In this document: positions 10,705 through 48,997 of the stretch, one piece after another
Numbering within the stretch: the first letter of the stretch is position 1
Layout of the letters: each line of letters opens with the position of its first letter
Origin: Glaucostegus cemiculus
Taxonomy: Eukaryota
DNA length: 64,000 nucleotides
Direction of reading: 5' to 3'
NCBI GenBank assembly: GCA_976551045.1
Contig: CDPCPM010000125.1
Span: 62,001-126,000 of the forward strand
Translations under genes and position numbers: made by a program
The notes under the pieces: generated by a model
The model's database searches: none
Told to the model about the DNA's origin: nothing
The model's input: only the letters and a program-made list of their open reading frames with translations

Positions 10705-11603
10705 TCAATGCCGTGACCATCGTGATCCTGTCGCGGGGGAAGTGCGGTCTCTCCAAGTGCGTCACTCGCTACCTGGTGGGCATGGCAGTGACGGACCTGC
10801 TTGTCACTGTCCTCGACCTGATACTGCGGCACATCCCAACTGCTTACTGGCAACAGTTTTCATTCCTGTTTTACTCCCGCGGGTGTCAGACGCACGCCTT
10901 CCTGCTGAAAGTGTCCACGGACTGTTCTGTCTGGTTCACCATCGCGTTCACCTTTGATCGGTTCGTGGCAATTTGTTGCAAGAAGCTGAAAACAAAATAT
11001 TGCACCGAGAGAACGGCGGCCGTAGTTCTGGGGACAGTGACTGTGCTGAGCTGTTTCAAGGACATCACCTGGTATTTTCTGCTCGCGGATGAATATAGTT
11101 TAATTGAAGACCCAAAGATCTGTTTTTCCTCGGCCAATACTTTGTTTTCAGAGGTCTGGGGAATGATTGAGCTCCTCCACTATATCCTCACCCCTGTGGT
11201 CCCATATGTCCTGGTTCTGCTGCTGAATGTTTTAACCATCAGACACATTTCAGTGGCGAGCAGAGCCCGCAGGAGACTCCGGGGTTCCTGCAGCGTGGAG
11301 GGTGTCAGAGACCCGGAGATGCAGAACCGCAGGAAATCAATGGTTTTACTGCTGCTTATCTCGGCTAATTTCATCCTTTCATGGCTGATGCTCATCCTGT
11401 ACAATGTGTGGCGGGAATTGTATTGGTTTTGGATCGCTGTGCCTCCGCCTTACTGGTTACAACAAATGGGATTCTGGTTCCAGCTGCTGAGTTGTTGCAC
11501 GAACACTCTGATTTATGCCGTGACCCAGACTAAGTTCCGGCAGCAGCTAAAGCTTGTGCTGAGATTTCCCCGAACTCTCGTTGTAAAATGCATCGGAAGG
11601 TAA
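10705..11603 (+). CDS. GPR139/142-like class A GPCR copy 1, exon 2 (intact; spliced protein 325 aa)
   Basis: Polypyrimidine acceptor tttctcttctcag|TC. Seven hydrophobic segments. Motifs: N1.50, MAVTD (D2.50), TM3 Cys plus ECL2 Cys, FTFDRFVAIC, TPVVPY, FILSW, SCCTNTLIY. Stop TAA at 11601-11603. Confidence 0.9.
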
Positions 11604-11612
11604 CGGGACCGG

Positions 11613-11618
11613 AATAAA
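11613..11618 (+). promoter_or_regulatory. Candidate poly(A) signal of GPCR copy 1
   Basis: AATAAA about 10 nt after the stop. Kept in copy 4 (49007-49012), mutated in pseudogene copy 2. Confidence 0.45.
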
Positions 11619-11904
11619 CCACAGCAGCAGAACTCGTCCACGTCTCGTATTCTCACTGTCCCTGTCCTACAGTCTGCGCTGCCCGCTGCGCCACGCTCTC
11701 ATAATGTAGATTCACACTCACACGGTGCCAACCATCTCAGGAGTCAACATTATTCCGTGACACGGTGCACAGCCTGCGGGCTGTGTTTACTGGGGAAATG
11801 CGCTCTCCCGATTTTGAGCAATCGCTGCCCCGCGTCCGTGCCTCTCCGGTACCCGCCTATGTGCGTCTCCACAGTCCTCATTTTGTTTCTCATTGTCCCT
11901 TCGG

Positions 11905-12125
11905 TTTCTTTACTTTCTCACTCTTCCTCTCTCTCTCCCACTCCCTCTCCCCCTCTCCCTCCCCTCACTTTTTCCACCTCTCCCTCTTTGTCTCTCCCTC
12001 TCTCTATCTCTCACGCTGTCTCTTTTTGTTCTCAGTTTCCTACTGTTTCCGTGCTTTTCCGCTGCCCCACTCCCCTCACCACCTCCCTGTCCTTCCCCTC
12101 TCACACGCTCATCCTCTCTCCTCTT
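11905..12125 (+). repeat. CT-rich low-complexity tract downstream of the GPCR (paralogs ~29220-29490 and ~49310-49535)
   Basis: Directly visible polypyrimidine tract. Confidence 0.8.
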
Positions 12126-13559
12126 GTGTAAATATTGTATTGCAACCGTTGTATATAATTTGTTTATTTATGTTTTCTTTGCGAATGCTGATGTTACCAG
12201 CCTGTGATAAAGTTATTCATTGCAGCTCTGCATTAGTGTACTGCGCACATGAGAATAAAATCGACTTAAACTTTCGCCTTTCACTCTCTGTCTCACTTTC
12301 TCCTCGTTTTGCAAGCGAACCCCACACTGACACCGCTCCCATCACACACAAAGTGCAGACATACACAAGTGCAAACGTGTGCGAGTAAAAGAACTCATAT
12401 AAACACACAGACACCGGAACACCCTGATGCTCTCACCCACACAGCGGCGCACACAAACACCCCAGCACCACACGCGAGCGCAGACGGACATCAACAGAAA
12501 CGGAAATAAACATAGAAAGACACAGGCATACATCTGCTTTCCAGTATCCACATTAAACACTGATGTGTACACGTTTCAGCCGCTCATCTTTCTCCGTTTC
12601 CCTCTTCGACAATATTCTGCCTCCTTCCCTGCTCACTGTGCTGTTCATCGTTCTGTGGCTCCTACTCAGCAGCAACACTGTCCGCAGCGGAGCCTAACAC
12701 CTGGCANNNNNNNNNNNNNNNNNNNNNNNNNNNNNNNNNNNNNNNNNNNNNNNNNNNNNNNNNNNNNNNNNNNNNNNNNNNNNNNNNNNNNNNNNNNNNN
12801 NNNNNNNNNNNNNNNNNNNNNNNNNNNNNNNNNNNNNNNNNNNNNNNNNNNNNNNNNNNNNNNNNNNNNNNNNNNNNNNNNNNNNNNNNNNNNNNNNNNN
12901 NNNNNNNNNNNNNNNNNNNNNNNNNNNNNNNNNNNTGTTTTGAAGACTGTCCGCAGCGGAGCCCAACAACCGACAGAGGAAATGATCGGGATAGAGGGAG
13001 AGAGAGAGAGGGAGAGAGAATCCTGATAGACGGAGAGAAGAAGGAGAGAGTCTCAGATAGAGAAAAAGAGAGGCGTAAAAGAAGGGGAGAAAGAAAGACG
13101 AGATGAGGTGGTCTCTGAACGGCCCACCTTTGGATCNNNNNNNNNNNNNNNNNNNNNNNNNNNNNNNNNNNNNNNNNNNNNNNNNNNNNNNNNNNNNNNN
13201 NNNNNNNNNNNNNNNNNNNNNNNNNNNNNNNNNNNNNNNNNNNNNNNNNNNNNNNNNNNNNNNNNNNNNNNNNNNNNNNNNNNNNNNNNNNNNNNNNNNC
13301 ATAAACAGGCCCACAAATTCACAGAAACAGGTGGTGATGTGAGATGCTGGCTTTCCGTCCCAGCGACTCCGATAGAAACCAACCCGCCGGTACTGTCTGT
13401 GGGAAGTTTGCCCGTCCTCTCTGTAACCTCGACTATTATCCAAGATGCTCCATTCCCTTCCACATCCCAGTGACGTGCTGACTGTGTGAGACTTAGCCAG
13501 AATGTGTTGCCGCATGTGGTTGGACGAGAGGTAGAATGTGAGAGGGCTTGATGTGAATG

Positions 13560-15790
13560 CGATTGGTGCGCGATTGAAACACGTGGCATCCATGGAGACC
13601 TGGTCGACTGGATTCGAAATCGACCTGACAGTGGGAGACCACGAGTAGTGATGGAGGGTGCAGTTCTGATTAGTCTGTGACAAGTGGGGTTCCACAGGGA
13701 TCAGTGCTGGAACGTCTGTCTGTGATTTGTAAATAATTGGAACGAAAGCACAAGTAGGCTGATTAGCAAATTTGCAGACAATACGAAAATTGGCGGCGAG
13801 GTGTAACGGGGGAAGCATTTGAAAAGATGCGCAGAGAATTAGCAAATAGAATTTAATCCTGAGCAATACGAGACGTTGCACATTGGGATCTGAAATATTG
13901 TTGGAAAGTATGGAATCAGTTATACAGATCTTAGGGAGTATTGATGTTCAGAGGGATCTTGGTGTGTAAATCCATAGGTCCCTGGAAGTGTTAACGCCGG
14001 CAGTTTGGGTGGTAATGAAGCCGTACGGGATACTTGCCTTCCAGGCCAGGGCTTTGAGTATAAACGCTTGGAAGTTAGGTGGCAGGTACAAATGACTTTG
14101 ACCGGGCCACAATTGGAATGTTGTGCGAAGTTGTGCTCTCCGATTACAGGAGCGATGTGGACACTTTGGGAAGGGTGCAAAGCGGTTCACATGGATGCTG
14201 CCTGGATTCGCGAACATTAGCTATAACGATAGGTTGGACAAACTTGGAATGTTTTACTCTGGAGCGGCGGAGGACGAACAGTCATCTGATTGAAGAAAAT
14301 TGAATTCTCGGATACACAGTGGAGGTGTTTAGGGTATCTGTCCCAGAGTGATATGTTGAATTGCCAGTCCTGCTCTTCTATCAGCCACGTCCCACCGACA
14401 GCAGCAACACTACATTCCCATGCGCTGACCAATGCTCTCAAGTTCATCTGCCTCAACAGTCAGACCGCTTGCATTTAACACAGCTGCAGTTTAGCCATTG
14501 CATCCTTCCACACGCCTTGTCATACTGACGTCTGCTGTGCCTCCTCGAACGACTTAGTGTTTCTATGGATGACTGAACCTCACTCCAACTGTTCACCTAC
14601 TCTGTGTCCCACCCGCTGCCAAATTAAGTTCGAACCTCCCCAACAGCACGAGCGACGTCACCCACTGCCCCAGCAGGAATATTGGACCAGTTAAGCTGCA
14701 ACCCTTCCTGCTGGTACAGATACAACATAACCCAGAGAGTGTCCCAATGATCTAAAGGCCCCCAAAACCCTCCAACCACCTAAAGCTCTCCCTCCTCTCC
14801 CTTCCCTGCAGACACACAGTTCTGCTGACCTGTCTGTCCTTTCCTATGGTTACCAGCGTGCGGCTCTGGCAGTAATCCAGAGAGGAGGACAACAGAGGTC
14901 CGTCTCTTTAATCTGCTCTCTAACTCCCTACGTTCACGGTGGTGGACCAATAACAAGGTGAGTGGTAGGAGATATAAAGGGGTTCTGAGGGTAGTTTCTT
15001 TACACAGAGAGTGTTTTATATCAGGAACGCTCTGCCAGAGGAGGTGGTGGAATCAGATAAATCACAACATTAAAGAGACATTTAGACCAACGCCTGAATA
15101 AGCAAGAATAGTAAGAGAAAAAGAGCGAATGTGGGCGTGGAGCAATGTAGATGAGTGAAAATGTCGGCCCGAATGCGGTGGACCAAAGGGCCCGGTTCTG
15201 TGCTGTACAACTCCATAATTCAATGACTCTATGACCTCAACCCCTTTTCTACCCGTGGCGCTAGTAGCCACGGGTATCACGGCCACTGACTGTTTAGTGT
15301 CCCCATTCAGCAGCTCTGAGAGATCACATCCCGGCACCAGGAAGCTAACGTCCTGTTCGAGTCTCGTTCGTAGCTGCAGAAACAACTCGCTGCTTTCCCT
15401 ACAACTGACACCCTGTCACCCCCAACCAAGCAGCCCCATGCGCAGCAGAGCCAATCGAGTTATTACAAACTTGAATGTTGTTGCTTTTCGTCAGGAGGCC
15501 ATGTCCCTGCTCCGCCAGCAGTACCTAAGGCGTTATAACTGTTTAAGAGGGGAATGGTTACCGAGAACTCTCCCACTACCTGCCCACACATACCACTGCC
15601 CCCAGAGTCCCAGGCTATGAATAAACAAGGAAACGTGATGTTGAATCTTTATAAAAAACTGAGCCTGCCTCACCTGGACTATTGTGTTCGATTCTGGGAA
15701 GGGTGTGAACACGTTCGAGAGGGTCCAGAAAAGATTTTCAAGAATGGTTGCTCGGGTGAGAGACTGTAGTTACAAGGGCCGATTAGAGGC
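13560..15790. mobile_element. Mosaic of decayed CR1-type LINE fragments on both strands
   Basis: Plus strand: RT remnants (VTSGVPQGSVL, ISKFAD) and a CR1-like 3' end near 14945-15235. Minus strand: endonuclease remnant (TWLIEEQDWQFNI). Boundaries approximate. Confidence 0.75.
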
Positions 15791-16389
15791 TGCAACTGTG
15801 TTCTGTGAAGAAGAGAGGAAAGAGGGGGGATCTGACCGAAGAGCAGGAGACAATGAGGCGCCTGGACAGATTGGAGAGCGGGCAGCAGTGCCCTCTGGCT
15901 GCCTAGTCGAGCATGGGTTGTCACAGGAATCAAATAACTGAAGAGTGATGTGAAGGGAAATCGTGTGGTCAGAATCAGGAAGGCGCCGCCTACAGATGTG
16001 GTAGAGGCAGGTTCTAATGTGACCGTCAGAAGGGAATCGGATGAGCATACAGTGGGAAAGATTCGGAGAAAGTGCCAGTGGGTGGAAGGAAGGTGCTCTG
16101 GCAGAGAGCCGAAATGGACATGTTAAAGCCGGAGAGACATCGAGTTACTCAGCACTGAAACAGGCTCGTCGGCCCCAATCACCCACGGACCTAACTTTTG
16201 TGTCATCTGGTCAGCTCTCTCTCTCTCCCAAACGTAGAAGCAGATCCTCGGTCTCTTTTAGAAATATACCTTTAGTGATAATTATCAATAAAGTGATGAA
16301 CTCCCCGGAAACTGTCTTTTCAGATAGTTTGCGTCTGTCTGGTCTGTCCAGAACAACTGCTCATTCCCCCATTGTATTATCGGGTTTAG

Positions 16390-17480
16390 TTCAGAAGAGT
16401 TCATTGTCATATTCATGAGTCGTGTGAAGCTGAAAGAGTTCACAGTCGTCATTATAATAAACACAACAATAAAGACAAGAAGAAACACTTTGAGCACAAA
16501 ACAGCCGAATGGTCCAAACTGAAGAGGTGCAAAATGAAATGCTGAGGTGACAATAACGGCAGAGGTAGAATTCAAAGTTCAAAAACGTGGCTGCAGCACC
16601 GGGAAGGGGATGTGAAAGAGCTGGTTGGTTCAGGTTCTGAACGCAGTGGGGAAGAAGCTGTTCTTGATTTTGGTTGTCCGGGATTTCAAGCGCCCGTGTC
16701 TTCTCCTCGTAGGCAGGAGAGAGAAGGGAATGGCCCGGTTGGTAGGCACTCTTGACGATGCCGTTCGCCTTCCCGATGCAACGCACCACGAAGGTGGTCT
16801 GCATGGAAGGAAGTGAATCTGTGACGGACCGGGCAGTTTTACCGTTCTCTGCCGGTTCCGTCGGTCGAGAGCAGAGCAGGTGCCGTCCCAGGCTGAGGTG
16901 TAACCTATCGGGATGGTTTCTGTAGCCCATTGTAAAAGTTAGAGAGAATCCTCGTGGACAGGCCGAATCTTCTCAGCATCTTCAAAGAATCTTCTAAGAA
17001 AGTAAATACGTCGATGCACTTTCCTGATCTCCGCATCAGTGTGGCGGAGACCCGGAGACGTTGCTTGCGATACGGATGTCTCGGATTTAGAAACTGTCGA
17101 CCATCTCTACAGCAGCTCTGTTGATGAGGACAGGGCTGTGTTCACGCACGTCCGCTTTCCTTACGTCAACAACAGGTCTTTCTCTTGCCGATGATAGGGA
17201 GTAGGTTGTTATTCTGGCAGCATAACAGAAGGTTTACGATGTTTCCTGTACTCTGTCTCATCATTGCTGATCCGGCTGATAACAGAGGTGTCACCGGCGA
17301 AATTGAAAATCCATTTGGCACTGCATTTGGCCTCACGAGTATGGGTGTACAGGAAGTCGAGTAGGGAACTGAGCACTCCACATTGGGGAGCACTCTGGAC
17401 TGGCTGACCGCCTTCTGGACTCTGACCACACTCGGGTCAGAGTCCAGAAGGCGGTCAGCAAGTCCAGAAGCCAGTTCCGA
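16390..17480 (-). mobile_element. Decayed Rex1/Babar-type LINE 3' portion
   Basis: Minus-strand remnants like PGHSLLS and KSRTTKIKNSFFPTA; the paralog at 34 kb shows TGAPQ and FAGDTSVISRIINDETEYRK. Boundaries approximate. Confidence 0.7.
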
Positions 17481-18050
17481 TGGAAGACCGTTGCATACAG
17501 AGGAAAATGAAGTGGTTTGTTTTGCAGGTGTAATGTTAGACAAGAACGTTAATTCCATCGAATTCTGGTGTTGAATCACAGGCGATTAATTGTCTATTAG
17601 AAAATCTGGTCATTTGGACGCAGGTCAAGGAACGAGAATTGAAAAATGTAATTCCTTTACATCTATCATACTGCAAGACATAACATGAGATACCTGTCCA
17701 ATTTGCAGTATACAACCAGTTTTACACACACATTGATTTAACTTCAATGCTATCCTCTTCTCAAGCATCCACTTGCCTCTGTGTCACAACTCACCACTAG
17801 CACCCCTCCTCCCCACAACGGGTTCGATTTGCACGTTGTCCTTCTCCCTTGCTCGGTCAACTAATCCCTCTGACCCCCGTCTAACTCCTCGCCTCTTCTT
17901 TATATTGCCAAGTTCCACTCCACGCTTAGTCCTGATGCACGGCAATTATATACCCGTGGAACAGCGAGGAGGTGGACAGAAGCAGTTTCCATGCATGGCT
18001 GGATATAATTGAAAGTCATTCTTGGTCTGCGTGCGTTGGATTTGTCAGGT

Positions 18051-18122
18051 TCCCTGGTGGTCTAGTGGTTAGGATTCGGCGCTCTCACCGCCGCGGCCCG
18101 GGTTCGATTCCCGGCCGGGGAA
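18051..18122 (+). tRNA. tRNA-Glu(CTC), probably functional
   Basis: Canonical body. Acceptor stem pairs with one G-U. Intact A and B boxes, TTTT downstream, TATA-like motif upstream. Confidence 0.85.
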
Positions 18123-19303
18123 GTGTGTTTTGGCAACTGGAATTCGTCAGAATCTTCGGAGCTGCAGCCACTGGTCCAGCATCAGCTCTGCTGACACAGG
18201 GCTTCTGCCGGCAGAATGATCAAGGTATCTTCCACTTCGCTGTGAAGCTACGGGACAGGCTAGCGAATATTAGAATGCATATGTCGAGTTGATTTTTATC
18301 CACTCTGACCAAATAGAAACGGGAACTGATCTCAGCCATGAATGAAGTGTGACGCCACCGAGTCGGCTCAAGCGTAGAGATGTCACTGGACGTACGGCTG
18401 ATCAGAGGTTACAATTTGACTTGGTTGCTTTGCCAATCTGCACACTGCTTCAGTCCCCTGAGCTGCTATCTTGTAAAAGGAGCCCATTCACAGTAAATCA
18501 GTCTGTCCCCTGAGAACAACTTCTGAATTCTTCGGACGAAACCAGGCAATCTTACGGGAATACAGAGCGATGGTATACAGTGCACACAATAGCGGGAAAT
18601 GTAACGCCTGCTCATGGTACATCTGGAATGGCTCGGCGGCAGTGCTTGCCGCCGTGTCGGCCTGCGGCCCTGCATGCTGTGTGTGTGCGCCATTTCAGAT
18701 CGGGTCAACTGGAGATTGTCAGATGTTGGCGTCGACATCTGGCGAGTGATCATTGAATAAACATCGTCTGTGCCCGTCAGTTTATGTCAAGCAAAATTTA
18801 AAAATTAAATTATAGGAAATCTCGGGGAGAATAGAAAGTATAGCAGAAGAAAGATCTTTGATTGTCAAAAGGTGACTTAATCGGACACGGCCATTTGAAA
18901 TTAAACAGCGGAAAGGGCCTGTCCGTAACATGAAAGAAAGGCATGGCGTTATTTCAACTGCACATGTACTGAAGGTATTGCAGCAATTAAGAAGGCAGGG
19001 CAAAGTGCTGATGAGCTTGACGTGAAGATGTGGGAAAAGGACGATTCTCTCAGTTGATTGTCAATGGTAGTTGGTTGAGGCGATATTGGCGAAGCACCTT
19101 TGACCCTTGTGTATGTTGAGAATGGAGGTGGCTTCGCTTGCAGCTGGAGTGAAACGATGAGATCAGTGTCCATTTGGCCGGGGCGAATTTAGCTGCCTGT
19201 ACGTCTGCCGGGACCTGAAGAGAAAATCATTTTGGATAATTATTTTCTGACTTGTGAGCTTGGCAAAGAGAATGTTAGTGAGCTGTGGTGATTTAAATCA
19301 GAT

Positions 19304-19375
19304 TCTCTGGTGGTCCAGTGGTCAGGATTCGAAGCTTTCACCGCCGCGGCCCGGGTTCTATTCCCGGTTAGGGAA
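19304..19375 (+). pseudogene. tRNA-Glu(TTC) pseudogene
   Basis: B box GGTTCTATT and anticodon-stem mismatches. Confidence 0.78.
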
Positions 19376-20279
19376 GTAAGTTTTGAAAGCAGCGACGAGG
19401 TAAGTTTGAGAACCTTCTTCTGCAGCATAAACCAGCGATATATCAATCAATGTCTCTCTGGATACAGTGAACACGGCCTCCTCCGCCGAGTGAGCAGGCT
19501 TCCTTGCAGGAATCAGGCTTCCTTGACTGTAAATCAGTGGCAGAGTTGATAGAATGTACCCCAAGATGAATAACGTCCCATCCAGCTCGTAACCGTCGCC
19601 CTCATCTTTCAATCAGTCAGCTGCAGTCGCGACCCATTAGACAGTCGCTAAATAACAGAGTCAATCGAAGGCGATTGCATTTTGGAAAGAAACAGGAGCA
19701 CAGGTTGAAAGAGTTGAGGGCTAACCACTTCAAGGTGAAGATTGTTAGAAGGCAGAGAAGATATCACAGTCATGATAAATGTACGCTTGGGGGCGTGGGA
19801 TAAACAGCTACCGTGAACTCAAATCATCAATCATCAGAAATGTGTATGTGGGGTGAAAGGAATGCCTGTCCTTCTATCTTTTTGTCAGCAAGCTGTGATG
19901 CGGCCGCGACGAATAAAGAAAGAGCAAAATGTTCTCTAGCGACAGAGGTTGCATTCGATTGGAGAAAAGAAAAAATCCCTGACTGGAACGTAAAGCGTTT
20001 TTGAGGAAAGATTTTTGTGGAAAACCAGTCAGTGTCGAAATTAGGATTTGTCAAGAGCATGATTCTTCACTGTGGGTGTTTTAGTTTGAAAGACAGAGTG
20101 ATTGAGAAACAGCCTGAGCCATATTTTCATGGCAGGACGCTTTGCAGTCAGGCTGCTGTTCTCGCACGACGACTATTTTGCCCGAGGAACTGCTGGGAGG
20201 AGGATAGAAAACCTTTTATGTGGCTGGCTGGATATAAATGAATGCCATTCTTGTTCTGCGTGCAGTATATTCATCAGAT

Positions 20280-20351
20280 TCCCTGGTGGTCTAGTGGTTA
20301 GGATGCGGCGCTCTCACCGCCGCGGCCCGGGTTCGATTCCCGGCCAGGGAA
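20280..20351 (+). tRNA. tRNA-Glu(CTC), probably functional
   Basis: All stems pair; U26>G hinge change; T5 terminator follows. Confidence 0.85.
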
Positions 20352-21291: not shown

Positions 21292-21362
21292 TCCATGGTG
21301 GTCTAGTGGTCAGGATTTGGTGCTTTTACCGCGGTGGACCGGTTCGATTCCCGGTCAGGGAA
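21292..21362 (+). pseudogene. tRNA-Glu-derived pseudogene (anticodon decayed to TTT)
   Basis: Many substitutions and a 1-nt deletion. Confidence 0.75.
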
Positions 21363-25993: not shown

Positions 25994-28986
25994 ATGTCGT
26001 TTGATATCTATTCTTTTTCTGATTATTTTGAGGAAGTATACTTCCCCGTGCTCGCTTCCATCGCTGTTCCAGGTATGCACCTGTAATGGGAATATTGAAT
26101 CCGCAGAACATGACTTGTTCTGCCAGCGTTCATTCAACTCGCTCTCAGTGGATATGGATATTAGATCCACGTTCCGCACTCGGCTTGGCGGATTTTTAAC
26201 TTTTAGTTTTATTACTGCAGACGTTTCAGTTAGTTCTAAGTTCGGTAAATTTCAGGTCCTCGGTTTCCTGCACCTCATTATTGTCCGTTAAGGTGAAGAT
26301 AATCGGTCGCTTCTTTAAAGTAACTGGGAACGAAAACTCCGCTCAAAACGGGGAGATGTCCCAGTCTGGCGGCTGCGCCATCGGACGTCAATGAGAGCGT
26401 CTCGCTGGTACCTGGAGAATCGGCAGCTTCAAAACACACTGGCGCTCACACTCACATGCTCTCTCTCTGTCTCTGTCTCTGTCTCTGTGGGTGTGTCTCT
26501 CTCTCTCTCACACACACACAACAAGAAAACATTCAGATGTAAACAGACGCAGACACCTAATGTGTTTTTCTTCATTTCATTCAGAGTCCGTGAACCCACC
26601 TGTCACAAACACCTCCTGTTTTTTTGCGGGCCGTTACATTCACTTACCTCGATGTGAATCTTGTGGAGTCGTTATTCTGCTCCGAACTGAATGAAGTCCA
26701 ACTCGAAAGTCTCGCCCCTTCACTCACACCACCGTTCTATTTTTTTTTAATGTGAAGGGAATTGTTTGCTTTTCGGAAGTTAAAGCGAACCCACATTTCC
26801 GATTCCGCTCGACGCAGGGAGACATCCGACAGTGAGGCACTCGTTTGGTTCTGTGGAGCTCAGTAAAATGTCAAAATATTTCACTCAGTCTCCGGGTCCG
26901 ACCGCACGGATCACGTTCCTCCACCCGGCGTGAGGATGAATATTTTTCCCGATGCTTTCACAATACAAACACGAATGTTGTAGTCTGTCAGAGAGCATGT
27001 CACTGCGCTGTACGTTCTGTCTGTTATTTTTCGATCGTTGGCAGAAATCATCTCTATCAACGTAAGATTATGCATGTGCCGTTCGTCGCTCCACTGTGAA
27101 TTTGACCCTGTGACTGTAGCGTGTGTGTGAGGAATCCCGGGAGTTTCCAGGGTTGACAGTCCCCGGGTTCTAACAGACCCTGAGTGACGGTAATGTTACA
27201 ACAGCTCTGGTTGTTGCAGTGATACCGCTGGGATGTCTCCGATGTTAAGAGCTCGACTGTGATTTACATTGGAAAATGACAACACAATTGAAACATTTTC
27301 TGCAATTTAAGGTCCCGCCGCTAGACGACAATTTCCCATCCGAGAACCAAAGACAATTACCCCGGTACGAAAAAAAAAAATTGTTGGGAACGCGCATCAG
27401 GTCAAGAAGCGTCACTGGAAGATGAATCCGAGTGAACGTTTCAGGGCGAAAGTGTGAACGCTGGTTCTCTTTCTACTGACGCGACCTCGACTGCTCATCC
27501 TTTGCGGCATTTGTGTTTTAGCTTGATCGTGCGTTCTTTAGGTCCATATTTTGAGCGGATTTGGAGAGAAATGAACATGTTATGAGGGGTCACGGACAAG
27601 AAGCAGAAACGTTGTCTAATTCCCCGGACTAACGCAGGGTCACCGGGTGACGAGCAGAAACAGCAACCTCAGCTGATGTCCCCACACTGACCCAGGGACA
27701 TGGGCAATGATCAGAAGCGGTGAATTTCCCTCAATCACTGATATTACCTGCGGACACCGAGGTGCCTTCTGATCTCCGTTGTGAACTCTTGGCTCTCGAT
27801 CTCCATGTACCTGTTGTAATTTATGGTTCTATGAAGTGGAAGATGAACACGCGGCAGACAGCGACATCAGTCGGTCACGCTGGAACGGCTCTTTCTGATC
27901 TGCAGTCTCATCTCCAATATTAAACACCATTCACTGATTTAATGTCTGATCAGTTATCCGGTGTCCAAAGGGTAACCCGGTAATAATTTAACTATTTATC
28001 TGTGCCACGAACATGAAAGGTAATACTAATTCAAACGAGTAACTGCGTTTCATATTGTTGTACAAATTCAATTTGTATTTCTCTTCTCAGTCAATGCCGT
28101 GACCATCGTGATCCTGTCGCGGGGGAGGTGCGGTCTCTCCAAGTGCGTCACTCGCTACCTGGTGGCCATGGCAGTGACGGACCTGCTGGTCACTGCCCTC
28201 GACCTGATACTGCGGCACATCCCAACTGCTTACTGGCAACAGTTTTCATTCCTGTTTTACACTCGCCGGTGTCAGACCCACGCCTTCCTACCGAATGTAT
28301 CCACGGACTGTTCTGTCTGGTTCACCATGGCGTTCACCTTTGTTCGGTTTGTGGCTATTTGTTGCCAGAAGCTGAAAACAAAATATTGCAACGAGAGAAC
28401 GGCGGCAGTGGTTCTGGGGACGGTGACTGTGCTGATCAGTTTCAAGGACATCACCTGGTATTTTCTGCTCGCGGATGTATATAGTTCAGTTGACTACCCA
28501 AATATCTGTTATGTCTCGGCCAATACTTTGTATTCAGAGATCTGGGGAATGATTGAGCTCCTCCACTATATCCTCACCCCTGTGGTCCCATATGTCCTAG
28601 TTCGGCTGCTCAATGTTTTAACCATCAGACACATTTCAGTGGCGAGCAGAGCCCGCTGGAGACTGCGGGGAAACTGCAGTGGGGAGGGTGTCAGAGACCC
28701 GGAGATGCAGAGTCGCAGGAAATCCATGAATTTACTGCTGCTTATCTCCGCTAATTTCATCCTGTTATGGCTGATGCACATCGTGTACAATCTGTGGTGG
28801 CAATTGTATTAGTTTTGGTTCTATGTGTATCCACTTTACTGGTTACAAATGGGATTCTGGTTCCAGCTCCTGAATTGTTGCACGAACACTCTGATTGATG
28901 CCGTGGCGCAGAATATGTTCCGGCAGCAGCTGAAGCTTGTGCTGAGATTTGCCCGAACCCTCGTTCTAAAATGCATCGGAAGATAA
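25994..28986 (+). pseudogene. GPCR copy 2 pseudogene (exon 1 25994-26072; exon 2 28091-28986)
   Basis: Premature TAG at 28810-28812, before TM7. DRF>VRF, L>P in TM3, L>R in TM5, NTLIY>NTLID, one codon deleted. Downstream AATAAA mutated to AATAAT. Confidence 0.88.
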
Positions 28987-38337: not shown

Positions 38338-38383
38338 TCCCTGGTGTTCTAGTGGGTAGGATTCGGCGCTCTCACGGCCGCGG
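38338..38383 (+). pseudogene. 5' fragment of tRNA-Glu(CTC), cassette junction
   Basis: Same truncation point as 7067-7112. Confidence 0.8.
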
Positions 38384-39858: not shown

Positions 39859-42525
39859 ATGTCGCTTGATTTCTCTTCTTTCTGTGATTATTTTGTCAAA
39901 GTATACTTCCCCGTGCTCGCTTCCATCGCTGTTCCAGGTATGCACCTGTAATTGGAGTATTAAATCTGCAGAACACAACTTGTTCTGCCAGCGTTCATTC
40001 AACTCGTTCTCAGTTGAAATGGATACGAGAGCCACGATTCGCACTCGGCTTTGCGGAGTTTTAACTTTTAGTTTTATTACTGCAGACGTTTCAATTAGTT
40101 CTAAGTTCAGTACGTTCAGGCCCTCGGTTTCCTGCACCTCATTAATTTCCGTTAAGGTGAAGATGAAGATAATCGGTTGCTTCTTTAAAGCAACTGGGAA
40201 CGAAAACTCCGCTCAGAACGGGAAAAGGTCCCAGTCTGGCTGCTGCATCATCGGACGTCTGTGAGAGCGTCTCGCCGGTACCTGGAGGAATCGGCAGGAN
40301 NNNNNNNNNNNNNNNNNNNNNNNNNNNNNNNNNNNNNNNNNNNNNNNNNNNNNNNNNNNNNNNNNNNNNNNNNNNNNNNNNNNNNNNNNNNNNNNNNNNN
40401 NNNNNNNNNNNNNNNNNNNNNNNNNNNNNNNNNNNNNNNNNNNNNNNNNNNNNNNNNNNNNNNNNNNNNNNNNNNNNNNNNNNNNNNNNNNNNNNNNNNN
40501 NNNNNNNNNNNNNNNNNNNNNNNNNNNNNNNNNNNNNNNNNNNNNNNNAGATGTAAACAGACGCAGACACCGAATGTGTTTTGGTTCATTTCATTCAGAG
40601 TCGGTGCACCCAGCTGTCACAAACACCTCCTGTTTTTTTGCGGGACGTTACATTCACTTACCTCGATGTGGATATTGTGGAGTCGTTATTCTGCTCTGAA
40701 CTGAATGAATTCCAACTCTAAAGTCTCGCCCCTTCCCTCACACCACCTTTCTATTTTTTTTATTGTGAACGGAATTGTTTGCTTTTCCGAAGTAAAAGGG
40801 AACCAACAATTCCGATTCCGCTCGACGCAAGGAGACATCCGACAGTGAGGCACTCGTTTGTTTCTGTGGAACTCAGTAAAATGTCAAAGTATTTCACTCA
40901 GTCTCCTGGTCCGACCGCACGGATCACGTTCCTCCACTCGGAGTGAGGATGAATATTTCTCCCGATTCTCTCACATTATAAACACGGATATTGCAGTCTG
41001 TCAGTGAGCATGTCACTGCAGTGTTCGTTCTGAGTGTTCTTTACAGATCGTTGGCAGAAATCATCTCTATCAGCCTAAAATTATCCATGTCCCGTTCGTC
41101 TCTCCACTGTGAATTTGACCGTGTGACTCTAGCGTGTGTGTGAGGAATCCCGGGGGTTTCCAGGGTACACTGTTCCCGGGTTCTAACAGACCCTGAGTGA
41201 CGGTAATGTTACAAAAGATCTGGTTGTTGCAGTGATACCGTTGGGATAACTCCGATGTTAAGAGCTCGACTGTGATTTACATTGGAAAATTAGAACACAA
41301 TTTTAAACATATTCTGCAATTGAAGGTCCCGCCGCTGGACGACCGTTTCCCATCGGAGAACCAAAGACAAATACCCCGATACCAACAAACAAATTGTTGG
41401 GAACACGCATCAGGTCAAGAAGCGTCACTGGAAAATTAATCGGCGTTAACATTTCAGGGCGAAAGTGTGAACGCTGGTTCTCTTTCTACTGAAGCGACCT
41501 CGACTGCTTAACGTTTGCGGCATTTGTGTTTTAGCCTGATCGTGCGTTCTTTAGGTCCATATTTTGAGGGGATTTTGAGAGAAATGAACATGTTATGAGG
41601 GGTCATGGACAAGAAGCAGAAACGTTATCTCATTCCCCGGACTAACGCAGGGTCACCTGGTGATGAGCAGAAGCAGCAACCTCAGCTGATGTCCCCACAC
41701 TGACCCAGCGACATGTGCAATGATGAGAATCGGCCAATCTGCCACAATCACTGACTTTATCTGGGGACACCGAGGTGTCTTCTGTTGCCCGCAGTGAACT
41801 CTTGACTCTCTATCTCCGTGTTACTTATTGTAATTTATGGTTCTAGGAAGTGAAAGATGAACAAGCGGCGGATTGGACATCAGTCGGTCCCGCTGGAACG
41901 GCTCTTTCTCAGCTGCAGTTTCATCTCCAACATTAAATACCATTCACTGATTTCATGTTCGATCAGTGACCCCGTGTCCAAAGGATAACCCGCCAATAAT
42001 TTAACTATTTCTCTGTGTCTCTGGCCGAGGAACACAGGCGAACATGAAAGGTATTACTCAAACGAGTAACTGCGTTTCATGTTGTTATACAAATTTAGTA
42101 TGTATTTCTCTTCACAGTCAGTGCCGTGACTATCGTGATCCTGTCGCGGGGGAAGTGCGGTCTCTCCAAGTGCGTCACTCGCTACCTGGTGGCCATGGCA
42201 GTGACGGACCTGCTGGTCACTGTCCTCGACCTGATACTGCGGCACATCCCAACTGCTTACTGGCAACAGTTTTCATTCCTGCTTTACACCCGCGGGTGTC
42301 AGACCCACGCCTTCCTGCTGAATGTATCCACGGACTGTTCTGTCTGGTTCACCATCGCGTTCACCTTTGATCGGTTTGTGGCCATTTGTTGCCAGAAGCT
42401 GAAAACAAAATATTGTACCGAGAGAACGGCGGTCGTGATTCTGGGGACGGTGACTGTGCTGATCAGTTTCAAGGACATCACCTGGTATTTTCTGCTCACG
42501 GATAAATATAGTTTAGTTCACAACC
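39859..42525 (+). pseudogene. GPCR copy 3, 3'-truncated in ECL2 (exon 1 39859-39937; exon 2 from 42118)
   Basis: Exon 2 homology stops after 'KYSLVHN' and runs directly into tRNA-spacer sequence matching 5234 onward. N1.50>S. TM5-7 are absent. Confidence 0.88.
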
Positions 42526-43403
42526 TGAAGGCTGCTTCGGACTCCTGAGCCGAGTTCTTTCAAAAGGAAGCCTTTTCACGGTAAATCAGGCTGTGCCCTG
42601 AGAAGTCCTTCAGAAAACATTGGGCTCATCCGCGCAATCCCAAGGGACCAAAGCCCAATGTTGTCCAGTGCACACAATAGCGGGAAATGTAACGCCTGCT
42701 CATGCTATATCAGGAACGGATCAGCGGCAGTTCTTGCAGGGTGCCGGCCTGGGGCCCTGCTTGTTTTGTGCCACTTCGGTTCGGGCAATTGGAGATTGTC
42801 AGCTGATGGCCTCGACACATGGTGAACGATCATTGAATAAACAACGACTGTGCCGGCCAGTTTAAGAGAACAAGCAAAATTCATAAATTGACTTGAAGGG
42901 AATCTCGGGGAGCAGGTAGAAAGTGCAGCGGAAGGAAGAGTTTTGATTGTCGAAAGGTGACTTAATCAGAAACGGCCGTTTGAAAAAAAACCCAGCGGAA
43001 AGGGCCAGTCCGTAACATAAATGAAATGCATGGCGTTGATTCAACTGCGCATGTACATAAGGTATCGCAGCAATGAAGAAGTAGGGCAAGCGTGCTGATG
43101 ATGTTGAGGTGAAAAGTGGTAAAAGGAAGATTGTCTCAGTTGATTGTAAATGGTAGCATCTTGAGACGATATTGGCCGCTGAGGATTCCAGCCAGGCAGC
43201 TTTGACGCCTGTGTATGTTGAGAATGGAGGTGGATTCGCTTGCAGCTTGAGTGAAAAGATGAGATCAGTGTTCATTTGGCTGGGGTGAATTTAGCTGCCT
43301 GTACGTTTGCTGGGACGTGATGAAAGAATCATTTTGAATACTTGTTTTCTGATTTGTGAGCTAGGCAAATAGAATGTTGGTGAGCTGTGGTGATTTCAGA
43401 CAT

Positions 43404-43475
43404 TCCCTGGTGGTCCAGTGTTTAGGATTTGGCGCTTTCACAGCCGCGGTCCGGGTTCGATTCCCGGTCATGCAA
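43404..43475 (+). pseudogene. tRNA-Glu(TTC) pseudogene
   Basis: D-loop and acceptor-stem substitutions. Confidence 0.78.
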
Positions 43476-44343
43476 GTACGTTTTGAGGCTATGACAAGTG
43501 ATAACTTTCGGAATCTACATCTGCACTAGAAACCAGTGATATATCAGTCAACGTCTCTTCTGGATACAGTGAGCACGGCATCCTCCACAGAGTGAGCCAG
43601 CTAGCTTGCAGGAAACAGACTTACCTGCCTGTAAGTCAGTAGCTGAGTTGATAGAACTTGCTCATAGATGAACCAGCTCTTATCCCACTAGTATCGGTCG
43701 CCCTCATCTCTCAATCAGTCAGCTGCAGTCGCCACCCATTTGACAGTCGCTAAATAACAGAGTAAGTCTCGAGTGCTTGTGACTTGGAAAATAAGAGACG
43801 CACAGATTGAAACTTGAGGGCTAAGAATTTCAAGGTGAATATTGTCAGTTGGCAGATCATAATGAATGGATTACTGGTGGCGTGGGGTAAACAGCCACGC
43901 TGAATCCAAATCATCAGACATCAGAAATCTCCACATGACGTGAAAGGAATGCGTGTCCTTTCGTGTTTGGAATCAAAACGTGATGGGGCCGCGTTGAAAA
44001 AAAAATAATGAGTGAAATATTCTCCAGCTACGGGGGTTGCATGCGATTGGATAGCATGACAAATCTCTGACTGGAATGTGAGTCGAAGATTTTTAATGAT
44101 CGCCTGTCAGTGTCGAGATGAGGATTTGACAAGTGCATGATCCTTGACTGAGTTTGAAATAGTGATTGAGAAACAGCCTGAGACAGATTTTCATGGCAGG
44201 ATGCTTTGCACTCGGGCTGCTGTTCTCGCACGACAACCGTCTTGCCCGAGGAACTGCTGCGAGATGGATAGAAAGCCTTTTCCGTGGTTGGCTGGATATC
44301 AATGAAAGCCAGACTTGGTCTGCGTGCGTTTTATTTATCAGGT

Positions 44344-44389
44344 TCCCTGGTGTTCTAGTGGTTAGGATTCGGTGCTCTCACCGCAGCGG
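44344..44389 (+). pseudogene. 5' fragment of tRNA-Glu(CTC), cassette junction
   Basis: Same as 7067-7112. Confidence 0.82.
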
Positions 44390-45872
44390 AGGAAGAGAGG
44401 TAATTTTCTCTGATTTAATGTTAGATCCTTTGATAGCTTTTCAGATGGCATTGGGACCCTGACTGGTTTCACATCGACATAGATTGTTACTAATATAGAA
44501 AACCGAACAAAACCACAGAAACATCACAGGAGGAGATCAGTCTAGAGCTCGGCCCGCTCCGCTCTTCAAAAAGATCACGCCGATGCTGCCTTCGCCTCAG
44601 CTCCGAATTGTATCTCATTCCACGTGCCCCTTGCCTCATTTCTGACGTCAAAGTCCAGCAGTCTCTACCCTGAGTTTATTCAGAGTTTCATCTCCACAGA
44701 TATCAGGAGTAGAGAAATGCAAAGTGCCGCAACACTCTGAAAGAACCCCCCACCCCCCCTCATCCGTATCTTCATTAGGCGATGTATTATTTTAGAAGCG
44801 AGCCCTGTAGTTCAGGATACTCATTGGAGGAGACCTTCACTCAGCATCCGTCCGCTCAGAATCTTCATTATTTGCAGAAAATCTTTCTCTCAGTCTCCCA
44901 AGTTGCGGTAAGTTTTGTCCCAAACTGTTCGCCCTTGCTCTCTCTGCCAACCCCTTCATGTGGGAATCATCCCGGTGAACCTCGGCACTGCTGCAGCACA
45001 GCAAAACCGCGCCTCATGTATGAGATAACCCCTCCCCACTTGCGAAGTTCTCTTCTCCCGTTTACTGACCCACCCCCATATCACTTGTTGAGGGAAGATG
45101 AGAATGTAAATATATGGAGGAGTAATGGGCCGCACGGCCGATCAAGGCTGTTCCGCACTGAATATCATCGTTCCTTCCAATGGGAACCCGCCTCATGAAA
45201 TATCCTTGTACGGAGATCAATCCCTGAACCTGAGAGAGATTGAAAACTATAACAATCAAATCAATAACAGTAAGAGCCAGGTCGGGAGCGGTGACCTTCC
45301 CGCAATCTCTAACCTTAACCAGCGCTGTCCACACAGTTTCTCATCCGCAATCAAACACTTGGTTTTTGGGCTTAGTCTCATTCATTTGAACGTGTAGTTC
45401 TCTTCACTGATCCACACATTGTACGATCGGCGGGAAACTTCACCAACACACTTTGCGAACGGCAGGTTCCCATGTAGAAGTTCCCCTGCAATATTTATTC
45501 GCTGTTGAGTCAGTCTGAAGCTGCCAACAGCCTCTGTGTGTCGAGTGGTAAATGCCGAGGCCGTCTCCCAGTTGCAGCTCCGTTTCTCCGGAGATCGAGA
45601 AATTCCACTCGCTTTCCGAGGTCTTTGTTTCTCTACTGTTTCACCACACGTAACAGCTACTCAATGAGAGTTGGACAGAAAAGAGTTAATGCCATTTGTT
45701 TGTTCAGTGTGTGTGACTAATCAGTGACACCAATTCCATCCAGAGAGGTTTGCTCTGCTATTAATAGAGGCGCCTGTCCGACGTGTACTCACAGCGCGTC
45801 AGCGAGAGTTTCCCCACTTCAACCCGGAGAATCATCAAGATCCAAACACGGGGAATTGTTGTCGATGAAACA

Positions 45873-45951
45873 ATGTCGCTTGATATCTATTCTTTCTCGG
45901 ATAATTTTGAGAAAGTATACTTCCCCGTTCTCGCTTCCATCGCTGTTCCAG
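45873..45951 (+). CDS. GPR139/142-like GPCR copy 4, coding exon 1 (MSLDIYSFSDNFEKVYFPVLASIAVP)
   Basis: ATG at 45873, donor CAG|GTATGC, paralog of 8599-8677. Confidence 0.85.
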
Positions 45952-48098
45952 GTATGCACCTGTAATGGGAGTATTAAATCCGCAGAACATGACTTGTTCT
46001 GTCACCGTTCATTTACCTCGTTCTCAGTGGATATGGATATTAGATCTACGTTCCGCACTCGGCCTGGCGGACCTGTAACTATTAGTTTTATACTGCAGAC
46101 GTTTCAGTTAGTTCTCAGTTCAGTAAATATCAGGTCCTCGGTTTCCCGCACCTCATTAATGTCCTTTAAGACAATCGGTCGCTTCTTTAAAGTAACTGGG
46201 AACGAAAACTCCGCTCAAAACGGGAAAAGGTCCCAGTCTGGCGGCTGCCTCATCGGGTGTCAGTGAAAGCGTCTCGCTGGTACGTGGAAATTAGCAGGTT
46301 GAAAACACACTGAACTGACACTCACATNNNNNNNNNNNNNNNNNNNNNNNNNNNNNNNNNNNNNNNNNNNNNNNNNNNNNNNNNNNNNNNNNNNNNNNNN
46401 NNNNNNNNNNNNNNNNNNNNNNNNNNNNNNNNNNNNNNNNNNNNNNNNNNNNNNNNNNNNNNNNNNNNNNNNNNNNNNNNNNNNNNNNNNNNNNNNNNNN
46501 NNNNNNNNNNNNNNNNNNNNNNNNNNNNNNNNNNNTCAGATGTAAACAGACGCAGACCCCGAATGTGTTTTTGTTCAGTTCATTCAGTGTCCATGCACCT
46601 GCCTGTCACAAACACCTCCTGATTTTTGCGGGACGTTACCTTCACTAACCTCGATGTGAATCTTGTGGAGTCGTTATTCTGCTCTGAACTGAATGCATTC
46701 CAACTCCAAAGTCTCGACCCTTCCCTCACACCGTCATTCTATTTTTGGAATGTGAGAGGAATTGTTTGCTCTTCCGACGTAAAAGCAAATCCACAATTCC
46801 GTTTCTGTTCGCCGCAGGGAAACATCCCACAGTGAGGCCCTCGTTCTGTGGAGCTCAGTGAAATGTCAAAATATTTCACTCAGCCTCCTGGTCGGACCGC
46901 ACGGATCACGTTCCTCCAGCCGAGTGAGGATGAATATTTCTCCCGATGCTCTCACATTACAAACACGGATGTTGTAGTCTGTGAGAGAGCATGCCACTGC
47001 TCTGTTCGTTCTGACTGTTCTTTTCCGATAGCTGGCAGATGTCATCTCTGTCAGCCTAAAATTATCCATGTGCCGTTGGTCTCTCCACTGTGAATTTGAC
47101 AGTGTGACTCTAGTGTGTGTGTGAGGAATCCCGGGGTTTTCCAAGGTTCACCGTCCCTGGGTTCTAACAGACCATGACTGACGGTAATGTTACAACAGCT
47201 CTGTTTGTTGCAGTGATACCGTTGTGATGTCTCCGATGTTAAGAGCTCGACTGTGATTTACATTGGAAAATGACAACACAGTTGAAAGATCTTCTACAAT
47301 TTAAGGCTCCGCCGCGAGACGACAATTTCCCATCCGAGAACCGAAGACAAATACCCGGGTACCAAAAAAAAAATTGTTGGGAACACGCATCAGGTCAAGA
47401 AGCGTCATTGGAAGATGAATCCAAGTTAACGTGTCAGGCCGAAAGTGTGAACGCTGTTTCTCCTTCTATTGACGCGACCTCAACTGCTCAACGTTTGCAG
47501 CATTTGTGTTTTAGCCTGATCGTGCGTTCTTTAGGTCTGTATTTTGAGGGGATTTTGAGAGAAATGAACATGTTATGAAGGGTCACGGACAAGAAGCAGA
47601 AACGTTTTCTCATTACCTGGACTCACGCAGGGTCACCGGGTGATACCAGAAACAGCCTCAGCTGTCTTCACCAAGCTGACCCAGGGACATGGGCAATGAT
47701 CAGAAGCGGTGAATTTCCCTCAATCACTGACATTACCTGGGGAAACAGAGGTGTCTTCTGTTCCGCGCAGTGATCTCTTGGCTCTCGATCTCCGTGGTAC
47801 TTGGTGTAATTTATGGTTCTATGAAGGGAAAGGGGAACAAGAGGCAGGCAGCGACATCAATCGGTCCCGCTGGAACAGCACTTTCTCATTTGCAGTGTCA
47901 TCTCCAACATTAAACACCATTCACTGATTACCTGTATGATCAGTGATCCCGTGTCCAAAGCGTAACCCGCCAATATTTTAACTATTTCTCTGTGTCACTG
48001 GCCGAGGAACAGAGGCGAACATGAAAGGTAATACTCAGTCAAACGTGTAACTGCGTTTCAAGTTGTTGTACAAATGTAATTTGTATTTCTCTTCTCAG

Positions 48099-48997
48099 TC
48101 AATGCCGTGACCATCGTGATCCTGTCGCGGGGGAAGTGCGGTCTCTCCAAGTGCGTCACTCGCTACCTGGTGGGCATGGCAGTGACGGACCTGCTGGTCA
48201 CTGTCCTCGACCTGATACTGCGGCACATCCCAACTGCTTACTGGCAACAGTTTGTATTCTTGTTTTACACCCGCGGGTGTCAGACCCACGCCTTCCTGCT
48301 GAATGTGTCCACGGACTGTTCTGTCTGGTTCACCATCGCGTTCACCTTTGATCGGTTTGTGGCCATTTGTTGCAAGAAGCTGAAAACAAAATATTGCACC
48401 GAGAGAACGGCGGCCGTTGTTCTGGGGACGGTGACTGTGCTGAGCTGTTTCAAGGACAGCACCTGGTATTTTCTGCTCTCGGATGAATATAGTTTAGTTG
48501 ACGACCCAAAGATCTGTTTTGTCTCGGGCAATACCTTGACTTCAGAGGTCTTGGGAATGATTGAGCTGCTCCACTATATCCTCACCCCTGTGGTCCCATA
48601 TGTCCTGGTTCTGCTGCTGAATGTTTTAACCATCAGACACATTTCAGTGGCGAGTAGAGCCCGCAAGAGACTCCGGAGTCACTGCAGTGGGGAGGGTGTC
48701 AGAGACCCGGAGATGCAGAACCGCAGGAAATCCATGATTTTACTGCTGCTTATCTCCGCTAATTTCATCCTCTTATGGCTGATGCACATCGTGTACAATC
48801 TGTGGTGGCAATTGTATTTGTTATGGTTCTATGTGGGTCCACCTTACTGGTTACAAGAAATGGGATTCTGGTTCCAGCTGCTGAGTTGTTGCACGAACAC
48901 TCTGATTTATGCCGTGACCCAGAATAAGTTCCGGCAGCAGCTGAAGCTTGTGCTGAGATTTCCCCGCACTCTCGTTGCAAAATGCACCGGAAGGTAA
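48099..48997 (+). CDS. GPR139/142-like GPCR copy 4, exon 2 (intact; spliced protein 325 aa)
   Basis: Acceptor ttctcag|TC, open frame to TAA, all class A motifs as in copy 1. Confidence 0.9.

Follow-up and report, generated by a model that had tools for sequence, protein, structure and literature searches.

Signatures of positive selection on the outer face of a large class A receptor gene family in Glaucostegus cemiculus

Receptor genes of the window and the extent of their family

The window, a stretch of 64,000 nucleotides of a Glaucostegus cemiculus contig, contains a portion of a tandem array made up of class A G-protein-coupled receptor (GPCR) genes, which represent a family present in thousands of copies genome-wide. 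Copies 1 and 4 are intact, and each encodes a 325 aa protein in two exons with GT/AG intron borders. The features of the window, all on the forward (+) strand, are as follows:

8599..8677, +, copy 1 exon 1: N-terminus and first half of TM1, with ATG, GT donor and phase-1 intron
10705..11603, +, copy 1 exon 2: remainder of the 7TM receptor (PF00001, E 3.8e-20)
11082..11150, +, copy 1 ECL2: codons 153-175, main cluster of positively selected sites
11379..11465, +, copy 1 outer TM6-ECL3-TM7: codons 252-280, with 12 differences from copy 4
25994..26072, +, copy 2 exon 1
28091..28986, +, copy 2 exon 2: pseudogene, stop at codon 267 (28810-28812)
39859..39937, +, copy 3 exon 1
42118..42525, +, copy 3 exon 2: broken off within ECL2
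45873..45951, +, copy 4 exon 1
48099..48997, +, copy 4 exon 2: intact 325-aa gene
48476..48544, +, copy 4 ECL2: codons 153-175
48773..48859, +, copy 4 outer TM6-ECL3-TM7: codons 252-280
63326..64000, +, upstream flank of a fifth unit, the frameshifted exon 2 of which lies outside the window (G000:C125:128551)

Exon 2 of copy 2 has also lost one codon near position 279 and has an altered DRF motif, while that of copy 3 is fused, past the break in ECL2, to DNA 96% identical to the sequence upstream of copy 1. The units of the array were duplicated at the DNA level with the intron retained, and their pseudogenisation is frequent. None of the 11 intergenic open reading frames tested had a Pfam match. 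Copies 1 and 4 score 72.9 bits against 7tm_1 (cut-off 30.5), the only Pfam family matched by the receptor copies, with no match to the OR, TAAR, V1R, V2R, and T2R families. Among the microswitch motifs, D58, DRF, and W253 are present, position 6.50 is occupied by M instead of P, and NPxxY reads NTLIY.

The TM3 motif of the family has 4,126 exact matches in the genome, and exon 2 is open in 17 of 40 sampled copies, which together suggest about 1,100-2,400 open copies before the removal of assembly duplicates. The two-exon layout is common to the sampled genomic copies. The spread of the family as a mobile cassette with sharp ends was considered and rejected, as 12 dispersed copies show no common boundary: their flanks gradually lose similarity at different distances from the TM3 motif, about 2.4-4.7 kb on the upstream side and 0.5-3 kb on the downstream side.

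Divergence of paralogs on the outer and inner face

The first-pass annotation estimated by eye that copies 1 and 4 differ at about 33 of 325 residues, about 25 of them on the ligand-facing side, and these values proved exact. The outer differences are located in the N-terminus (2; residues 11 and 15), ECL1/TM3 (3; 79, 84, and 95), the TM4 tip-ECL2-TM5 tip region (8; 147-178), and outer TM6-ECL3-TM7 (12; 252-280). The inner ones number eight (216, 220, 221, 224, 240, 302, 320, and 323), including four in ICL3 and that at 240, which were absent from the earlier account. With the two halves delimited by conserved motifs, 25 of 140 outer residues differ vs. 8 of 185 inner ones (Fisher p=7e-5), in support of the proposed clustering. 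TM5, described earlier as identical, is so from residue 179 onward, but W178L falls in its first turn (modelled helix start at about 176).

The ratio of nonsynonymous to synonymous differences between these copies is 30:5 in the outer half and 9:13 in the inner half (p=0.0009). Synonymous changes, the equal clustering of which was to speak against selection, are not clustered (5 of 18 outer, p=0.47), so the outer pattern cannot be put down to conversion tracts. Nor are the protein-identical stretches of the two copies recent conversion tracts, since their synonymous divergence (pS=0.089) equals the mismatch rate of the intron (0.084). Taken alone, the pair does not exceed neutrality (30 nonsynonymous of 35 outer changes, p=0.24); the only stretch that diverges above the intron rate is TM6-ECL3-TM7 (14 of 89 sites, p=0.016, post hoc choice).

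When 40 paralogs of the genome are compared, dN/dS reaches about 3-5 at sites of ECL2, ECL3, and helix tips alone. Single-tree site models favour selection (LRT 238 for M8 vs. M7 and 209 for M8 vs. M8a), and the 18 sites whose posterior is >0.5 all lie on the extracellular side. In copy 1, the selected sites are residues 154, 156, 160, 161, 163, 164, 168, 170, 173, and 174 of ECL2, and residues 271, 273, and 280 of outer TM6-ECL3-TM7. The dN/dS of N-terminal residues 2-13, based on 15 exon-1 sequences, is 5.2 (LRT 7.2). These results indicate positive selection at a small share of the sites of ECL2, ECL3, and the N-terminus, and purifying selection on the inside of the receptors. The earlier proposal of a diversifying outer face and a conserved inner face is thereby borne out by site models on genomic paralogs, except in two regions. 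ECL1, when analysed with its own tree, gives no significant signal in the subfamily of the window (LRT 0.7 and 0.0), while selection there is seen in a second clade (p=0.02). ICL3 alone is only weakly constrained (dN/dS 0.55, p=0.06 vs. 1).

Pocket, lid, and possible interpretations of the pattern

The structure model of exon 2 (pLDDT 69) resolves TM2-TM7 and H8 and leaves TM1 partly unresolved; ECL2 is predicted to form a beta-hairpin. The best fold match is GRPR (Z 17.9, rmsd 4.0, 257 residues aligned). Peptide receptors rank highest among the structural matches, but those listed (Z 15.5-17.9) also include lipid, nucleotide, and amine receptors, and the fold therefore does not single out peptides. 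In the subfamily of the window, purifying selection acts on 17 positions of the deep pocket (dN/dS 0.24-0.30, p≤0.005), and their dN/dS is low in the second clade too (0.34-0.48), which places the diversification in the lid and not in the pocket floor. Certain pocket states are fixed differently between the clades: mostly H vs. F at 6.51, mostly N vs. S at 6.55, and mostly N vs. Y at 3.33.

Loops that evolve faster than neutral, together with the conserved inner face and deep pocket, make it probable that the family is a birth-and-death repertoire in which many external ligands are recognised but a single signalling output is shared. The pocket floor (D99, H185, W253, and Q286) would hold on to whatever feature these ligands share, and the variable lid above it would read the part in which they differ. 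Such an arrangement may suit small odorants less well than peptides or large ligands of other kinds. Coupling to G proteins is suggested by the DRF motif and by the conservation of ICL2. A large repertoire, birth-and-death turnover, and outer-face positive selection are chemoreceptor-like traits observed here. It is conceivable, if rather doubtful, that cartilaginous fishes carry in these genes a seventh chemoreceptor family of vertebrates, hitherto unrecognised and descended from a GPR139-like ancestor; certain species would then have about a thousand functional genes or more, comparable to the largest olfactory repertoires of mammals. The selected sites listed above provide a map for loop swaps.

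Selection on exposed loops is predicted equally well by an arms race, in which the loops escape pathogens, parasites, or their surface-binding proteins and a single endogenous ligand continues to bind the conserved pocket of every paralog. In its favour, the selected sites are those that the receptor exposes most; the purifying selection on the deep pocket in the subfamily and its low dN/dS in the second clade are also consistent with it. Such escape does not, however, readily explain the retention of about a thousand open copies or the different fixation of pocket states 6.51, 6.55, and 3.33 between the clades, and we consider it unlikely.

A further alternative is that constraint on the loops is relaxed and that gene conversion, together with multi-nucleotide mutations and rate differences along the gene, mimics dN/dS above 1; a part of the data agrees with it. 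The mean dN/dS of the outer half is 0.92 and whole outer regions are near 1, so much of the clustering reflects relaxed constraint with a minority of selected sites; whole-loop means of 1.2-1.5 lose significance once double hits are permitted. The dS of ECL2 is about twice that of other regions, and segment trees are in conflict (ΔlnL up to 75), which indicates that gene conversion is real. Null simulations with recombination and rate variation yield plain LRTs up to 31.8, so the single-tree LRTs are inflated, but the ECL2 value of 52.8 was reached in none of the 16 simulations. That value comes from the control for recombination, in which each segment was given its own tree and which the claimed selection withstood (LRT 52.8 for ECL2, 29.0 for TM6-C, and 0 for both intracellular segments). 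With segment trees, multi-nucleotide hits, and rate variation combined, the LRT is 10.7 for ECL2 (p=0.005) and 11.5 for ECL3/TM6-C (p=0.003). In a set of 21 non-redundant, indel-free copies it is 35.7 (ECL2) and 31.7 (TM6-C); this set and masking exclude the ECL2 indel and near-identical alleles as sources of artefact. A CpG hot spot in the loops is ruled out as well (0.122 vs. 0.117 CpG per codon).

A second, independent clade of 22 paralogs shows the same selection pattern, and there, too, the signal outlasts all three corrections. Sites chosen in either clade have dN/dS of 2.6-2.8 when tested in its counterpart (p≤0.003 in both directions), a result matched by 1 of 39 worst-case null replicates. 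Private inner-half changes are 49:49 nonsynonymous to synonymous in intact copies vs. 36:8 in pseudogenes (p=0.0004), and changes in pseudogenes are evenly spread, albeit in a low-power test (p=0.23). Relaxed constraint as the whole explanation is thus quite improbable.

Reproductive and immune recognition genes often show such a pattern of selection. That the family would mediate self or gamete recognition between cells (e.g., in testis or immune tissue) rather than environmental sensing seems very unlikely, the other point in its favour being the expression of some catshark V2R genes in two non-nasal tissues, testis and rectal gland (PMC11979771).

Significance and relationship to known receptors

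Selection on the outer face of a duplicated GPCR family is familiar; what is unusual is the family itself, with a minimum of 4,126 copies in a single genome and with purifying selection on the inside and positive selection on the outside. To our knowledge, cartilaginous fishes are thought to hold the smallest chemoreceptor repertoire among vertebrate groups, and that they have so few olfactory receptors despite large olfactory organs is a puzzle. The number of complete olfactory receptor genes given for them in PMC10869828 is 20-62. Chondrichthyan surveys counted the six known families alone, and the main texts of PMC10620051, PMC10869828, and PMC11979771 do not mention GPR139. Our search of the openly accessible literature found no paper on this receptor family, and within that reach it is apparently known solely under an automatic, misleading name. 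Should the array genes prove sensory, the puzzle of the few olfactory receptors would look different; should their role lie in immunity or reproduction, a recognition system of very large size has seemingly been overlooked.

The array genes belong to the elasmobranch family annotated as "probable GPR139", with 2,125 clusters at E≤1e-10. All 120 of the matches listed, from six shark, skate, and ray species, bear the name "probable G-protein coupled receptor 139", which is assigned automatically by NCBI/UniRef. These proteins are mostly about 58-65% identical to those of the array at 96-100% coverage and share the two-exon layout of the copies sampled here. The copies of the window form their own clade in a quick tree (12 of 12 rows, SH-aLRT 100), with no protein of another species inside it among the matches listed.

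Nevertheless, the array genes are not orthologues of GPR139, an orphan class A GPCR of vertebrates, because the same genome contains a true GPR139 at a separate locus (one motif match, C73), only 25% identical (64/253) to copy 1. A single-sequence PDB search did not find GPR139, nor was it among the best 50 fold matches, but a search with the family profile recovered it as the top solved-structure match (PDB 7VUG and 9M42, E 3e-14); the quick tree has a single long outgroup branch and does not include GPR142 or other receptors. Both GPR139 and the array genes have a splice acceptor at an equal place in TM1. Agonism of GPR139 requires F109, H187, W241, and N271, according to PMC5430874. Two of these four residues are conserved, H187 and W241 corresponding to the family-invariant H185 and W253, while F109 aligns to N, Y, or K and N271 to F, S, or T. 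In the profile alignment, GPR139 also lacks cysteines at the positions aligned to the Cys87-Cys166 pair of the family.

The protostome-expanded family related to MIP/sex-peptide receptors clusters with GPR139/142 according to PMC11004728. Neighbours of the array family in the protein atlas include clusters in which 16-74% of members carry an Srw annotation. The invertebrate MIP/sex-peptide-receptor-related and Srw-type expansions may be viewed as a lead only. The OR, TAAR, V1R, V2R, and T2R chemoreceptors resemble the array family in their large birth-and-death GPCR repertoires, tandem arrays, many pseudogenes, and outer-face diversification. While the variation of ORs is located in TM3, TM5, and TM6, that of the family described here sits in the lid.

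The receptor array and its duplicated surroundings

The assembly under study comprises 2.85 Gb, and the window (G000:C125:62001-126000) contains four tandem receptor units, all on the + strand, each consisting of a 79-nt exon 1, a phase-1 intron of about 2 kb and exon 2. Copies 1 and 4 are intact and encode 325-aa proteins, both matching Pfam 7tm_1; a stop at codon 267 interrupts copy 2, and copy 3 ends abruptly within ECL2. The AlphaFold model, which covers exon 2 only (pLDDT 69, pTM 0.54), has helix limits consistent with the boundaries set beforehand from conserved motifs:

Residues 42-73: TM2
Residues 87-120: TM3
Residues 128-152: TM4
Residues 153-168: ECL2 hairpin
Residues 176-218: TM5
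Residues 230-268: TM6
Residues 276-300: TM7
After TM7: helix 8

Pocket positions follow motif-based Ballesteros-Weinstein numbering and a general list of class A pocket positions, not model coordinates.

The broken end of copy 3 joins DNA 96.2% identical to the upstream flank of copy 1 (window 42522-46327 vs. 5231-9061). A larger duplicated block is evident from the matching pairs 13301-21393 and 50783-58841 (96.3%) and 21297-25610 and 59695-64000 (97.4%); its flanks resemble each other more closely than do the introns of copies 1 and 4, which are about 90% identical. The next unit upstream (L001/L113, G000:C125:49602-55995), which is 98.9% identical to window 6700-12700 (40 mismatches in 6 kb), with an identical exon 2 and a 100% match in exon 1, is a very recent duplicate of copy 1 without coding change. 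The spacers are filled by a degenerate repeat with a period of about 2 kb and 75-88% identity between repeat copies, an inverted piece of which lies just 5' of the receptor units; a Pfam search of eleven spacer ORFs gave no matches.

Window 219-7300, 17900-24940, 34950-35920, 37500-38600, 42520-44590, 55390-63340: spacer repeat

Selection on the outer and inner faces

The inner face and pocket floor of these receptors are under purifying selection, and loop sites are under positive selection. The first-pass annotation had counted about 33 differences in 325 residues between copies 1 and 4, placed them mainly on the ligand-facing side and proposed diversifying selection. The count is exact, as is the concentration (25 of 140 outer-half residues vs. 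8 of 185 inner-half residues, p=7e-5), but four ICL3 changes were missed. A further 18 codons differ only synonymously, and synonymous changes, the equal clustering of which the annotation had set against its own proposal, are unclustered (p=0.47). The N:S ratio is 30:5 in the outer and 9:13 in the inner half (p=0.0009). Since inner pS (0.089) is on a par with intron mismatch (0.084) and inner pN is far lower (9 of 409 sites, p=1e-7), the protein-identical stretches reflect purifying selection; the match of inner pS to the intron rate excludes conversion as their cause. From this pair alone, dN/dS>1 is not demonstrable (p=0.24).

A genome search gave 132 scored matches; those at ≥79% identity number 54 and lie on four contigs. 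Of these, 53 were fetched, the remaining one being copy 2. Exon 2 is open in 45 of the 53, and removal of eight broken copies and five exact duplicates left a subfamily set of 40 paralogs. Copy 1 is unusual among them in having in-pocket changes too, with K95 present in 1/40 and L256, R263 and E264 in 2/40. Near-identical copies are common to contigs C567 and C677, and many copies are identical or identically scoring across each of the pairs C567/C677, C122/C131 and C122/C270, a likely sign of haplotigs or of segmental duplication in the very recent past; such copies inflate the counts.

Codon models were written in Python (M0 lnL -6153.84 vs. -6153.89 in IQ-TREE), with naive empirical Bayes site posteriors. 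On one tree of the 40 paralogs, the LRT was 238 for M7 vs. M8, the comparison suggested in the annotation, 218 for M2a vs. M1a and 209 for M8 vs. M8a (dN/dS 5.5 at 6% of sites), values that are inflated, as indicated by conflicting segment trees (ΔlnL 18-75), raised dS in ECL2 (2.8 vs. about 1.2 in other regions) and LRTs of up to 31.8 in 16 simulations of the null that included recombination and rate variation. Every one of the 18 sites whose posterior exceeds 0.5 is extracellular (79, twelve within 154-174, 179, 271, 273, 275 and 280). The recombination control called for by the annotation, in which each segment had its own tree and branch lengths and indel-adjacent codons were masked, left the signal in place in 142-189 (LRT 52.8, reached by 0/16 nulls) and 252-325 (29.0), with 0.7 in 28-99 and 0 in both intracellular segments. 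When double and triple hits as well as rate variation among sites were also allowed, 142-189 and 252-325 retained LRTs of 10.7 (p=0.005) and 11.5 (p=0.003), respectively, at dN/dS of 3.3-3.5; in 21 non-redundant, indel-free copies the values were 35.7 and 31.7. Exon 1 was located within 4 kb at 19 of 20 loci, and in the gapless alignment of 15 distinct exon-1 sequences N-terminal residues 2-13 have a dN/dS of 5.2 (LRT 7.2).

Lid, pocket floor and possible function

The deep pocket (17 positions) is conserved, with dN/dS of 0.24-0.30 in the subfamily and 0.34-0.48 in a second clade; for the upper pocket the values are near 1 and 0.5-0.6, respectively. With the deep pocket conserved and the loops changing, the lid thus varies above a conserved pocket floor. 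Average loop dN/dS does exceed 1 (1.2-1.5), but significance is lost once double hits are allowed; ICL2, ICL3 and H8 together have 0.25-0.42, and ICL3 alone 0.55 (p=0.06). The proposed diversifying selection therefore holds in a refined form: it concerns the lid and not the pocket floor, loop averages are modest, and ICL3 is weakly constrained. In pseudogenes, private nonsynonymous changes per codon are evenly spread (loops 0.27, other outer 0.15, inner 0.21), and inner-half private N:S is 36:8 there vs. 49:49 in intact copies (p=0.0004).

The second clade, whose members share about 62% identity with the window copies, was represented by 22 sequences. Of 17 outer hits fetched, 13 were used and four from C633 set aside as belonging to a separate subclade; of 17 open copies on contig C1, 10 were used and seven more divergent ones excluded; one duplicate was removed. 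Its LRTs are 39.8, 43.4 and 36.6 in the three outer segments (strict model p=0.02, 0.002 and 0.0008), against 1.1 and 0 in the two inner segments. Site sets picked in either clade, when tested in the opposite one, have dN/dS of 2.6-2.8 (p=0.0005-0.003). This result was matched by 1/39 replicates of a worst-case null in which each site had its own random tree, or effectively perhaps 1/29, as ten replicates never left the starting value. A quick tree places the second clade with proteins of skates and rays (SH-aLRT 98). Its N-termini (L071-L110, on C1) are longer, with at least 45 aa before TM1, and look highly variable; a more distant third clade (about 50% identity) is interleaved with it on C1.

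On sequence grounds, we lean towards a repertoire that tells many ligands apart: the variable lid above the conserved floor would discriminate the ligands, probably large molecules such as peptides, and the receptors would share a single signalling output. Loop change as escape from pathogens appears unlikely. Relaxed constraint combined with modelling artefacts is somewhat less likely still, and cell-cell or gamete recognition is the least probable reading.

Family size and relation to known receptors

Exact matches in the genome number 4,126 for a 29-nt TM3 pattern (reversed control, 0), which puts the family at no fewer than 4,126 copies, and 3,626 for a 32-nt TM7 pattern. Over the initial 6.35 Mb of C1 the lists hold 100 and 77 matches, with 42 loci common, giving a rough capture-recapture total near 7,500 for the genome. 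The genome search had hits on dozens of contigs, and TM3 matches occur about once every 63 kb, on both strands, over the first 6.3 Mb of C1; at this density, the family would fill a sizeable portion of the genome. Exon 2 is open in 17 of 40 C1 copies (95% CI 27-59%; three near-identical pairs) sampled by position from the 100 TM3 matches, about every second one, with some skipped where a stretch duplicated an earlier one. The resulting estimate of about 1,100-2,400 open copies is extrapolated from one contig, refers to exon 2 only and includes any haplotig duplicates. Family copies arise by DNA-level duplication and undergo birth and death; sampled copies retain the intron and their flank similarity fades without a shared endpoint, which fits segmental duplication.

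The family is very large and appears unstudied: a search of the openly accessible literature found no paper on it. NCBI annotation already shows the expansion. The pattern of outer-face diversification itself is of a known kind. For comparison, complete olfactory receptor genes number 20-62 in cartilaginous fishes, and the largest olfactory receptor repertoire is 2,399 (PMC10869828).

A protein search gave 2,125 clusters at E≤1e-10, and 120 of the 120 matches listed, from six elasmobranch species, are named 'probable/putative G-protein coupled receptor 139', which points to an elasmobranch as the source of the DNA. Judging by sequence identity, this name is misleading, since the genome has a separate GPR139 locus, with low identity to copy 1:

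G000:C73:25528067-25531098 (L111): true GPR139 exon 2, the one GPR139 motif match in the whole genome

At the protein level it shares 25% identity with copy 1 and 22-36% with the 120 listed family proteins. Among the best 50 fold matches listed, all within Z 15.5-17.9, peptide receptors rank first, and lipid, nucleotide and amine receptors are included; GPR139 is the top solved-structure match of the family profile (E 3e-14). GPR139 agonism requires four residues, F109, H187, W241 and N271 (PMC5430874); F109 and N271 are without an invariant counterpart in the family copies, whereas the residues opposite H187 and W241 are the same in 40/40 copies.
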